From NCBI GenBank assembly GCA_965216315.1, contig CBDCFN010000015.1, positions 64,001 through 128,000 of the forward strand: a DNA stretch of 64,000 bases, read 5' to 3'. Every line of letters begins with the position of its first letter. Position 1 is the stretch's first letter. This document shows positions 30,001 to 33,000 of the stretch, one piece after another. A program made the position numbers. The stretch comes from a bacterium (GTDB taxonomy: Bacteria > UBA10199 > 2-02-FULL-50-16 > JAJFLM01).

Positions 30001-33000
30001 TCGTGTCCCCGCAGCTCGCCTGGCTGCAGCCCATGCGAATCTGAAAGGTGAATCGCAATGAAATATATTAAACGATGCCTCTCCCTACTGGCGTGCCTAA
30101 GCGTCTTGTCTTGTGCCGGTGACCCCTTGTTTGTCTCGATCGGCGACAACCTTTCGGGGCCGATTGCCATCGTGCTCGATACAGCGCGTTCCCGCGCTTA
30201 CGTCGTCAATTCCAATCTTAACGTCGCTTTTGAGGATACGAGCCTCATCACCTTAGACATTGCTGACCCGACCGCACCGACTATATTAGACATCAACAAC
30301 AATCCCTTTGAAGTTCCGGCATTATCGGGCCAGGCCTTCCTTGATGCCACGACCCAGCGCTTGTTCGTTACGAATCGCTTTTCCTCCAATAATAAAGACC
30401 TCATTGACAACCTCCTCGTTATCGATATGACGGAAGATGGTGATTTTGGCACGCTTCAAACCATTGAGGCCGGTGAAAACCCATTTGGCATTGCCTGTTG
30501 TGACAATCAAAATCGTTTCTATGTTGTTTCCGACGGTAACCTTGAGGTCTTCGACCTCGATGATCCAACGAGCAAAACCACGATCAGCCTCGAAATCACG
30601 GTCAGCAATGGCGACTCTTTTAGCGGCGACTCGACAACGCACATTGCCCTGCTTAACAATCAAGCTTTTTTAACAAATCGGGCCGGCATCATCTACGTCA
30701 TTAACACCGATAAAATCGATGGCAGTGGGCAGAACCCTATCGATTATCTTATTGCCAACATGAACGACTTGCGCGGCATTGTAAGCGATGGGACGAATCT
30801 CTACACGGTTGAAGTCGATTTCGAAGACGATGAAGTCACGCGCTTACGTTCCATCGATCTGACATCCGTTCCGCCGCTTGCCGATATCAGTGAAACGATT
30901 CTCCGCATCGACGTCGAAAACGATGGCGTTGAACGACAGACTTTAAGCGTCGGCCTCGAACCCCAAGAAATTTTACTCTTTAACAATCGCGCCTACGTGA
31001 CTAATGGTGACAGTGACAGCGTCACGGTCGTCGACATCACCGACCCGGCGAGCATGGCCACCATAACAACCATTGATCTGACGAGTGGCGGCTTTACAGC
31101 TAAGAATCCTTTTGGCATGGCAGCCGCCAACATCGGGGGCACGGACTATCTATTTGTCACCAATTTGGATTCCAACAACATCTCGATCATCGACGTCGCC
31201 AGCAACACGGTCGTCGCAAATTACCCTTAAAGTAAGAAATTTGGCCAAAGCACAGTTTGTCCACAGCTGTGGGTACCGGTTTCTCATAATGAGAATCGAG
31301 GGCTATCCCCAGCCTATCCACAGGCTTATCCCCTGATTTTCTCGCTCATGTCGCCGCGCTTTCAGTTAAGCACTTATTCTTTCCATCTCGGCATCATATT
31401 GAGGTGCAAGACGTGACCAATCGTACTGCAACATCGCCTGACTGAGTTGTTCGGTCTTATTCTGTCCCACGCTGTTCAACGCCCGCTCTAATCGATCAAT
31501 CAATTCCGTTTGTGAGGTATAAAAAACATTGTCATGAAACTCGGCCGGAATCAGTTCCGGATAGGCGAGTCGTTTGGGCAAGAGCGGCTGGCAACCGCAA
31601 TAAATCGCCTCGGCGACGCTCTCACCAAAAAATTCCTGGTTGGAAGTAACCGGCAATAGGTCCGCACGCCGGAGCCACTGCACATAGTCGGCCTTCGACG
31701 GGACATAGCCCCATTGTTCAATGTGATCACGAAACTCCTCTTGTGCACTGATGAAAACATCCGGAACGACGTCCGGTTGCTCCCCTAGAATCGCCAGGCC
31801 AAAATCATGTCCCCGTTGCTTCAGCGTGCGCAAGGCCACAAAAAAGGCGGCTGGATTTTTGTCATATTCCCAGCGGTGGTTCCAGAGGATGAGCGGCCGC
31901 TGATTCGTGCCCGGATCGCCTCCATCCAATGACTGTAAGTCGACACCCAAGCGCAAAATCGACGACTTGTTCCGTAACAATGCGACCGATTCACGGTCGT
32001 GATCATCAGGAAAAAAATTAAGCATCGCCTGCAACTCATTAAGAAACGAGTCACGGTTGTATGCGGAATTAAAGAAGAGCGCGTCTGCCGCCAATGCCGA
32101 CTGTAAATGAATCGCCCCCAAGAAAGCCTTTTGCGTCGTAATGTTGCGCTCTTTTTCCGACCAAGGATAAGAAAGTTGGTTCTCATGAAAGTAAATCGCC
32201 GTCGGCGTGCCGGCGGTTTTCTGTCGTGTCAGTGCCAAAAACGACGCCAAGTCGAGCATATCGGAGGCCAAGAGTAGATCCGCTTTGAGATCCTTTGCCA
32301 TAAATTCACGGGCCAGCGTCACAGCACCGTGTTGCATCCGCCACTTCCAGGCGCGACCCGGCAAGGTCAGTGTCGTCACATCGTGCTGGCTATACCGGAC
32401 ATAGCTCTCAATCCATTTCTGATGGGATCCGGTATAAAAGGGCTCGAGGATAAGGATTTTCATCGCTCCATGCTTCGTAGCCGAGAAAACCGGATGAAAC
32501 AAGGGCCTGCCCCTGCTCCTCTTATCCACAAGATATCCACAAGATATAGTAGGTCGGGAAGCGAGGAACCACTATCCCTTGGGTTTTTTGCCCTTTACAC
32601 ACTTTAACCGCTTATGCTAGCGTTTTGAGCAACAAATTCACCTCAAAAACGATTACTTAGGCCTCTTATGAGGATAAAGAAGCTCGAGCTGCAAGGCTTC
32701 AAATCTTTCGTCGATCCGACGATCATCGACTTTGACCTCCCTATCGTGGGGATAGTGGGCCCGAACGGCTGCGGCAAATCCAATGTCGTCGATGCCATTC
32801 GCTGGGTCATGGGCGAAATGTCCGCCAAACACCTTCGTGGTAAGGCGATGGAAGACGTGATTTTCAATGGGTCTTCCAACCGGGCTCCACTTGGCATGTC
32901 GAGCGTCTCGCTGACCTTCTCCACCGAAGACGGCATGGTGCCCCCGCAGTACAGCGGCTTCACCGAAGTCACCGTCACGCGGCGTCTCTACCGTTCCGGC

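Follow-up and report, generated by a model that had tools for sequence, protein, structure and literature searches.

A gene on the minus strand of the window (by which we mean the whole stretch of 64,000 nucleotides that was analysed) encodes a bacterial relative of the animal enzyme QTMAN (GTDC1). The gene is intact and of full length, and the invariant residues of the family are kept in both halves of its product. Judging by homology and gene co-occurrence, we lean towards the view that this protein glycosylates queuosine in tRNA. It would be a soluble, cytoplasmic, retaining glycosyltransferase of the GT-B fold (GT4-type) and of the QTMAN/GTDC1 family, and we presume that it is active. It would transfer a hexose from a nucleotide sugar to a hydroxyl of the queuosine cyclopentenediol at position 34 in one or more tRNAs with a GUN anticodon, an activity that would parallel that of animal QTMAN on tRNA-Asp. 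That the acceptor is Q34-tRNA we infer from the conserved acceptor-side domain, from the presence of Tgt in every carrier tested and from the housekeeping context of the gene.

Animal QTMAN (GTDC1) is the enzyme known as tRNA-queuosine alpha-mannosyltransferase (Zhao et al. 2023, Cell, as cited in 10.64898/2026.03.22.713446 and PMC12518689) and, according to the accessible part of the text, mannosylates the allylic 3-hydroxyl of Q34 in tRNA-Asp (PMC12518689); for its product manQ, the transition m/z 572 to 163 is given in 10.64898/2026.03.22.713446. The genome-wide survey's note, which drew attention to the gene, presented a bacterial counterpart as a novelty. This was overstated, considering that bacterial members are already named after QTMAN by homology in Pfam, UniRef and the ESM Atlas. 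As far as the accessible parts of the literature go, animals are the only source from which glycosylated queuosine has been described (PMC7384130; PMC10690763). A literature search, which covered sources other than the text of Zhao et al. 2023 itself, found no paper on the bacterial QTMAN/DUF3524 family. What is new in the present analysis is the set of shared motifs, the gene context, the data on QueA in the relatives, the pattern in Chloroflexota and the overlap with GluQRS.

The open reading frame extends from 32529 to 31366 on the minus strand, and its GTG start gives 387 aa in the ORF list. In the translation, a TTG at 32502 in the same frame opens the version of 378 aa, which the survey's note had taken as the gene product. 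An ATG is found at 32463, with GGAG at 32469-32466 immediately 5' of it. Since the consensus of the family opens with the conserved N-terminus MKILLLEP (alignment of 39 family sequences) and since GGAG precedes the ATG at 32463, the product is likelier to have 365 aa and the coding sequence to occupy 31366..32463 on the minus strand, stop codon included; thus, the full-length reading frame of the note was retained and its start site was moved. Upstream, the intergenic region 32464..32667 separates the gene from the divergent smc, which starts at 32668 on the plus strand (ORF list and sequence). Both promoters are presumably located there; a consensus scan gave 0 sigma-70 sites in 31100-32800. 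The neighbours in the window are smc and a beta-propeller lipoprotein, and they are uninformative on the function, as the survey's note had warned.

The two-domain architecture claimed in the note is well supported by Pfam. The QTMAN_N domain (PF12038), which is the acceptor-side Rossmann half, is matched over its complete model (1-168 of 168) by residues 15-187, encoded at 31942..32460 on the minus strand (E 1.1e-56; 191.8 bits, cut-off 25). The C-terminal donor-side GT1 domain of GT4 type (Glycos_transf_1, PF00534) is matched by residues 201-353, encoded at 31444..31902 on the same strand (E 7.3e-12; 45.6 bits, cut-off 26.4). A scan of the whole genome for QTMAN_N found a single copy (193.9 bits); the family is absent from E. 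coli, which does have Q-tRNA (0/14 control genomes).

Both halves carry the motifs of the family: GSH, WKWR, YFHENQL and FNS in the N-domain, and LWNHRWEYDKNP together with PLLPKRLAYPE in the C-domain. An E-x7-E stretch in the C-domain, EFFGESVAE as read off the translation, is presumably the GT4 motif. An alignment of 24 sequences (12 bacterial, 5 cestode, 4 of the diatom type fused to SpoU, and 3 long forms) has 31 invariant columns. The invariant residues of the N-domain are 12, namely S26, H27, W52, R55, Y104, H106, E107, N108, Q109, P113, N145 and S146; in the C-domain these include W207, R210, D214, K215, P217, T286, F292, G293, P306, P309, R311, L312 and P315. The acceptor-side half of GT-B enzymes usually varies with the acceptor, and its conservation here speaks for the proposed reading; on the other side, a change of acceptor comes easily to GT4 enzymes.

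The AF2 model (pLDDT 90.9, pTM 0.89) predicts the GT-B fold with confidence; residues 1-9 of the 378-aa version are disordered in it. The closest solved folds are those of retaining GT4/GT5 enzymes for soluble acceptors (Foldseek E 5e-13 to 1e-10, TM-score 0.6-0.7), and no PDB entry is matched by sequence at E <= 0.01. It is a rather unlikely but serious alternative that the family glycosylates another soluble acceptor (queuine, queuosine, a precursor, a pterin, a thiol-type cofactor precursor or a protein) and acts on tRNA only in eukaryotes. In favour of it, the closest folds belong to enzymes with small soluble acceptors: GlgM, MshA, BshA, PimA, the tetrahydrobiopterin glucosyltransferase and SenB. 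The protein is also acidic (pI 5.4; the family median is 6.07), and nothing in its charge hints at a strongly basic surface for binding RNA. Against it, the structural neighbours share only about 12-18% identity with the protein, and at this level they show the fold and not the acceptor. The 12 invariant residues of the N-domain, which are common to the window's protein and to the animal and diatom enzymes, argue for the same acceptor pocket.

The similarity to the eukaryotic enzymes extends over the full length, as the survey's note had proposed. The window's protein is collinear with the Taenia solium protein named 'Glycosyltransferase-like domain-containing protein 1' (BLASTP: 32% identity over 377 columns, E 6e-41, residues 16-318), and the invariant residues are kept. 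A Nitzschia protein, which UniRef names tRNA-queuosine alpha-mannosyltransferase, is 32% identical over 405 columns (BLASTP, E 4e-50). The domain fusions point in different directions. Members of the diatom type have a SpoU RNA methylase domain in the same polypeptide; in the bacterial type, the fusion partners are a GH2 beta-mannosidase-type module and an M20 peptidase, which are not RNA domains and are in better agreement with an acceptor other than tRNA.

If tRNA is the target, its queuosine has to be available in the host. The survey's note described a complete pathway, and we find Tgt, QueA, QueC and QueG encoded in the window's genome and tRNA-Asp(GUC) at C16:327666. QueA is present in 49 of the 50 genomes of the nearest relatives. 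However, Tgt and QueA are both very common genes (14/14 and 9/14 control genomes, respectively), so their co-occurrence with the gene is weak evidence. Concerning the donor, the ManC-type GDP-mannose enzyme TIGR01479 (GMP_PMI) has no match in the window's genome, which is 98.3% complete; the search refers to guanylyltransferases of this type only.

The gene context was counted in 72 related loci and the window; 8 of 80 loci, in which the ORF caller had lost the target gene, were left out of the counts (L004, L015, L023, L025, L038, L039, L080 and L081). The neighbours of the family are housekeeping genes, and they differ between lineages: those specific to Neomarinimicrobiota include SmpB and TyrRS, and those specific to Desulfuromonadales include IspG and ProRS. 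Of the 51 neighbours scanned with Pfam, a single one is a glycosyltransferase. No neighbour is conserved across phyla in the 72 loci and the window, and the idea of a conserved operon partner was rejected for this reason. Recurring biosynthetic neighbours would be expected for a cofactor pathway, which is a further argument against a soluble acceptor of that kind.

The same counts bear on the suggestion that the gene is an ordinary GT4 glycosyltransferase of the cell envelope or exopolysaccharide. The suggestion agrees with the automatic JGI label 'glycosyltransferase involved in cell wall biosynthesis' and with weak NCBIfam matches to HpsP and EpsE, although the scores of these are far under the cut-offs (27 bits against 550 and 24 against 400, respectively). 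No sugar or polysaccharide gene cluster is seen around the gene in the 72 loci and the window; an adjacent GT4 was seen in one locus (L079). A cross-phylum identity of about 50%, a single copy and a specific N-domain are atypical of envelope GT4 genes, and we consider this explanation improbable.

Chloroflexota allow a closer look at the relation to Tgt. Among 301 genomes of this phylum there are 26 carriers of the QTMAN-like gene; every one of the 26 encodes Tgt, and there is no carrier among the 42 genomes that lack it (one-sided Fisher p = 0.017, with no correction for kinship). The Tgt proteins of the carriers are 73-100% identical and the carriers are largely one clade, so the small p-values in this phylum overstate the independence of the observations. 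The relation to QueA is the reverse: it is found in 5/26 carriers and in 203/275 non-carriers, a negative association. Thus 21 of the 26 carriers lack QueA and 25 lack QueC, all of them having Tgt. In 19 of these carriers, Cys158 of Tgt is replaced by Leu and the 231-235 loop is one residue shorter. Genomes with the remodelled Tgt carry the QTMAN-like gene in 19 of 21 cases, and the other genomes in 7 of 280. It had been supposed that the other Tgt-bearing Chloroflexota without QueA have the same remodelled Tgt; this is wrong, as only 21/301 genomes have it. Two further carriers have Qng1 (PF10343), which adjoins Tgt in one of them.

The set of Tgt and Qng1 in these carriers resembles the eukaryotic salvage route, and it is tempting to propose, tentatively, that glycosylated queuosine occurs in bacterial tRNA and that the eukaryotic handling of queuosine is of bacterial design. 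In eukaryotes, the handling would consist of the salvage of queuine, its insertion by a queuine-type transglycosylase and glycosylation by QTMAN. Some Chloroflexota would have the same set of parts, with no QueA or QueC, with a Tgt that is remodelled or paired with Qng1, and with the QTMAN-like gene (19/21); the window's organism would have received the QTMAN-like part recently and have it atop a de novo pathway. The loss of QueA and QueC and the salvage lifestyles would also fit a salvaged free base or nucleoside as the acceptor, that is, the other soluble acceptor discussed above. Also, should the base inserted by the remodelled Tgt not be queuine, these bacteria would have no queuosine to glycosylate; a term search for the specificity residues of Tgt gave no match in the accessible part of PMC11570991. 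The transporter gives little support to queuine salvage, most of it being missing: YhhQ/QPTR has a strong match in 4 of the 26 carriers, and in 9/26 at E <= 0.001.

Another point concerns GluQRS (YadB), the enzyme that adds glutamate to Q34 of tRNA-Asp in bacteria and is the only known bacterial decorator of the cyclopentenediol of Q, according to the accessible part of PMC10690763. An either/or distribution of the two genes was considered and rejected. In Desulfuromonadales (151 genomes, 71 carriers and 80 non-carriers), GluQRS is over its cut-off in 68/71 carriers and 75/80 non-carriers (Fisher p = 0.72), so the QTMAN-like gene is no replacement for GluQRS. With tRNA-Asp as the target, the two enzymes would compete at Q34. 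The overlap therefore speaks against a simple role on tRNA-Asp, and the co-occurrence is one more observation on the side of another soluble acceptor. In the window's genome, GluQRS has no match over its cut-off. Glycosylation of queuosine in the bacterium's own tRNA, a long shot in the survey's note, is nevertheless the leading reading: the invariant N-domain, the Q pathway and Tgt in 26/26 carriers are for it, and GluQRS in 68/71 is against it.

We also considered 7-deazaguanine in DNA, and not in tRNA, as the acceptor, as may be the case for related phage glycosyltransferases. Viral contigs yielded a single relative, a glycosyltransferase on L117 that shares the C-domain, including its NHRWEFDKNP motif (hhalign probability 97.9%), and is located after FolE and a GATase-QueC fusion; several carriers in Chloroflexota have a second, divergent paralogue of the TGT family. 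However, the N-domain of the viral protein is not alignable and has no QTMAN_N match even at E <= 5, so the acceptor side differs. A tblastn search of 50,697 phage records with the window's protein found nothing, and within the window there are no genes for deazaguanine in DNA near the QTMAN-like gene. We regard this explanation as highly improbable.

The distribution given in the survey's note was confirmed for the phylum: the gene is present in 1 of the 93 genomes, which is the window's genome (the note had 0 of 92 others). The family is large in bacteria; of 8,000 candidate proteins that were scored, 6,841 reach E <= 1e-5, and in species genomes at least 581 of 586 matched stretches were recovered. 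Cultured carriers include Geothermobacter hydrogeniphilus HR-1, Desulfuromonas soudanensis, Flavilitoribacter nigricans DSM 23189, Portibacter marinus and Balneola sp. EhC07, and the ESM Atlas also has clusters of carriers in Actinomycetota. Since the carrier is alone in its phylum, the gene was probably acquired by horizontal transfer. The protein is 43-56% identical to relatives in Desulfuromonadales, Bacteroidota, Balneolaceae, Neomarinimicrobiota, Chloroflexota and Acidobacteriota, and 43-65% identical to family members over many phyla. In a quick tree of 51 rows its branch is fairly long (0.95 changes per column), and those of the cestode and diatom-type proteins are very long (2.4 and 3.7). 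Long-branch attraction is flagged as a possibility for one join, and 22/48 inner branches are unresolved. With such branches the donor of the eukaryotic enzyme cannot be named, and the quick tree gives no answer on the source of that enzyme.

The window alone adds one more member to a catalogued family, whose only distinction is that it stands alone in its phylum and was probably transferred there. The importance would lie in the activity. As far as the accessible parts of the literature go, the purpose of glycosylated queuosines is still debated. If the proposed activity is true, a simple and genetically tractable system would be at hand for the effects of the sugar on decoding and tRNA stability, as well as a recombinant tool for the production of glycosyl-Q tRNA and a view of the emergence of the animal pathway.

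Among known systems, retaining GT4/GT5 enzymes such as GlgM (6tvp), MshA (3c48), PimA (2gej), the tetrahydrobiopterin glucosyltransferase (5zes/9v0l) and BshA (5d01) have the same GT-B fold as the QTMAN-like protein; none of these enzymes has the QTMAN_N signature. GluQRS is a truncated GluRS; it acts on the base proposed here as the target, but its fold is unrelated to GT-B. The viral glycosyltransferase, known to us from one locus in a 7-deazaguanine cluster, has the C-domain motif NHRWE[YF]DKNP in common with the window's protein, and its acceptor is probably DNA, unlike the proposed tRNA. The window's protein is one of the bacterial proteins automatically named DUF3524 or 'tRNA-queuosine alpha-mannosyltransferase domain-containing' in NCBI, UniRef and the ESM Atlas; unlike the others, it is the sole member in its phylum and has a fairly long branch. 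The nearest system by design is animal QTMAN, which has the same architecture of QTMAN_N and GT1 and shares the invariant GSH, W..R, YFHENQ, FNS, W..R...DK.P and P..P.RL..P. The bacterial protein is shorter (365 aa) and lacks the insertions that the alignment shows in the eukaryotic proteins, and its host makes queuosine de novo, whereas the host of animal QTMAN relies on salvage.

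An ORF with a QTMAN-like product lies at 32529-31366 on the reverse strand. The genome-wide survey's note had assigned it a 378-aa product; the gene itself stands, but the start that this length implies, a TTG at 32502 by translation, is probably not the true one. Considering that the family alignment of 39 sequences opens with MKILLLEP and that an ATG at 32463 follows a GGAG at 32469-32466, a 365-aa product starting at this ATG is more likely the true one. Both domains named in the note were recovered by Pfam, QTMAN_N (PF12038) across the full length of its model (E 1.1e-56) and Glycos_transf_1 (E 7.3e-12); an NCBIfam scan gave solely far sub-threshold matches, to EPS glycosyltransferases, and a sequence search of PDB chains gave no match. 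The AlphaFold2 model built from the alignment is confident (pLDDT 90.9, pTM 0.89) and predicts a GT-B fold, with retaining GT4/GT5 enzymes as the closest solved structures, including GlgM, MshA, PimA, BshA and tetrahydrobiopterin glucosyltransferase (12-18% identity). The G+C content of the gene is about 0.52, and the flanks are alike. The gene is real and intact, and by its sequence it genuinely belongs to the QTMAN family.

This family is large. Among 8,000 candidates scored, 6,841 proteins fall at E <= 1e-5; the best 120 matches listed, the protein itself (100%) aside, are 48-65% identical to the query, and at least 581 relatives were found among 586 matched stretches in species genomes. 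Named members come from Desulfuromonadales, Desulfobacterales, Neomarinimicrobiota, Balneolaceae, Saprospiraceae and other Bacteroidota, Anaerolineae, Acidobacteriota, KSB1 and others; none of 14 control genomes has one. Eukaryotic members were recovered by the search among longer proteins, and BLASTP gave 32% identity both to GTDC1 of Taenia solium (E 6e-41) and to a diatom protein (E 4e-50).

Twelve bacterial sequences, five cestode GTDC1, four SpoU-fused proteins (one from the diatom Nitzschia) and three long forms share 31 invariant columns. The invariant residues of the N-domain are S26, H27, W52, R55, Y104, H106, E107, N108, Q109, P113, N145 and S146; those of the C-domain are W207, R210, D214, K215, P217, T286, F292, G293, P306, P309, R311, L312 and P315. 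In GT-B enzymes the acceptor site is normally shaped by the N-terminal half; that this half is conserved from bacteria to animals is the best single argument for a common acceptor, which it would suggest rather than prove. Glycosylation of queuosine in tRNA is the likeliest function, and we favour it with modest conviction.

QTMAN_N and Glycos_transf_1 are fused to a SpoU RNA methylase in four proteins (P0126, P0127, P0129 and P0130), one from Nitzschia inconspicua, and a single protein may thereby carry out two tRNA modifications. Among bacterial-type fusions, P0124 (1244 aa) has GH2 beta-mannosidase-type domains, a hint of mannose chemistry, and P0122 (785 aa) has an M20 peptidase; in the protein collection both are represented by one cluster each. 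At one locus, on a viral contig (L117), a 359-aa ORF has the C-domain in common with the family, NHRWEFDKNP included (hhalign probability 97.9%, columns 183-326), with an N-half that is not alignable and gives no QTMAN_N match. The cluster there (L117:170-4965) comprises FolE, a GATase-QueC fusion and an oxidoreductase, followed by this glycosyltransferase with the QTMAN-type C-domain, and also an unassigned 301-aa ORF; it probably serves deazaguanine DNA modification with a sugar step. A tblastn search of phage records gave no match.

In the source genome the gene is present in a single copy by whole-genome profile search. The report of QTMAN_N in none of the 92 other genomes of the phylum was borne out: this is the sole carrier among 93 searched, 63 of them of high quality, and it probably acquired the gene by transfer. 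The note's queuosine genes Tgt, QueA, QueC and QueG were all detected, and tRNA-Asp(GUC) was located where the note had placed it. No match to a ManC-type GDP-mannose enzyme was found in this genome, and none to GluQRS over its cut-off; a 257-bit match to the latter model sits in a 520-aa frame and, given that length, is taken as GltX-like.

Were the enzyme to take the role of GluQRS on tRNA-Asp, its gene and that of GluQRS would be expected as alternatives. Among 151 Desulfuromonadales genomes the gene occurs in 71 and GluQRS over its cut-off in 143; an either/or distribution is ruled out, considering that both genes are found in 68 of the 71 carriers (p = 0.72). From this co-occurrence, either the enzyme acts on another queuosine tRNA or another hydroxyl, or it competes with GluQRS, or tRNA is not its substrate at all. 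The main rival to glycosylation of queuosine, a different soluble acceptor, is in our opinion possible if doubtful.

Gene neighbourhoods were counted in the 72 of 80 related loci where the ORF caller retained the gene, and no neighbour family recurs across phyla in them. The biggest neighbour clusters (13, 11, 11 and 11 loci) are lineage-specific or generic secreted-domain proteins. A Pfam scan of 51 neighbours (42 close same-strand and 9 cluster representatives) found one glycosyltransferase, the remainder being housekeeping genes of all kinds; in Neomarinimicrobiota SmpB and TyrRS lie upstream of the gene, and in Desulfuromonadales it is flanked by IspG and ProRS. In the window a beta-propeller lipoprotein ORF lies beside the gene, and smc is divergent from it. 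The 390-aa predicted lipoprotein-like ORF at 30058-31230 (forward strand), whose start overlaps the end of the pyruvate phosphate dikinase gene, scores a sub-threshold 19.9 bits (cut-off 21.7) against the 7-bladed beta-propeller lactonase family; beyond a weak TPR match in Pfam (E 1.6e-4), the 1383-aa ORF at 36250-40401 (reverse strand) is unassigned.

That the family exists is already known: its bacterial members are labelled tRNA-queuosine alpha-mannosyltransferase, by homology, in UniRef and the ESM Atlas. A literature search, which did not cover the primary QTMAN paper, found no paper treating them. The new pieces are the GluQRS result and a pattern in Chloroflexota, and both sharpen the deciding experiment on function.

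Among the nearest relatives QueA is found in 49 of 50 genomes, the single miss being a Caldilineae MAG. QueA (PF02547) matches at full length two or three times in genomes of Balneolaceae and in some from Bacteroidota (G014, G016, G018, G020, G023, G028, G031-G037, G040, G041, G045). The Chloroflexota sample, the most informative one, is of 301 genomes, including five unpublished ones without the gene (G076, G208, G211, G304, G313). All 26 carriers have Tgt (259/301 in the sample), and none is among the 42 genomes without it (one-sided Fisher p = 0.017). QueA, present in 208 of the 301, is negatively associated with the gene (5/26 carriers vs 203/275 non-carriers, p = 5e-8); QueC, sought in carriers, was found in 1 of 26, and a strong YhhQ transporter match in merely 4. 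At least 13 of the 26 also have a second, divergent TGT-family paralogue (L111-L114 and other places). It is about 375 aa long, has the motifs LDDCTH and GFGGWPLDAQG, scores roughly 283-323 bits against PF01702 and might be a transglycosylase of the DNA or archaeosine type.

The canonical Tgt pocket (DEC; GGL[AS][VI]GE) is kept in the five QueA-bearing carriers and in the source genome. In 19 carriers without QueA, Tgt reads FDELPP and IGG-SLGxxK instead (for example L099:1468-2682, reverse strand; loci L090-L108, genomes G074-G327); in Z. mobilis numbering Leu replaces Cys158, the 231-235 loop has one residue less and Glu235 is missing. Defined by at least 73% identity to the L099 protein, this type is present in 21 of the 301 genomes, all without QueA, and the QTMAN-like gene is carried by 19 of the 21 vs 7 of the 280 others; within the 21, QueC was sought in the 19 with both and is absent from all of them. 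Since the 21 genomes are evidently closely related, the pattern perhaps reflects a single event in evolution rather than 19. The best PDB matches of the FDELPP-type Tgt include Z. mobilis variants with Val at 158, one also with Ser-Gly at 232-233, which score marginally higher than the wild type (359 vs 356.8 bits); such substitutions mimic the eukaryotic enzyme, which uses queuine. The base that the FDELPP-type Tgt uses may be queuine. The last two carriers without QueA have a different variant Tgt and Qng1 (PF10343), the latter immediately upstream of the former at G322:C19:39491-41529 (L109, L116). Chloroflexota genome G322 has neither QueA nor QueC; its Qng1, variant Tgt and QTMAN-like gene form a eukaryote-like queuosine gene set.
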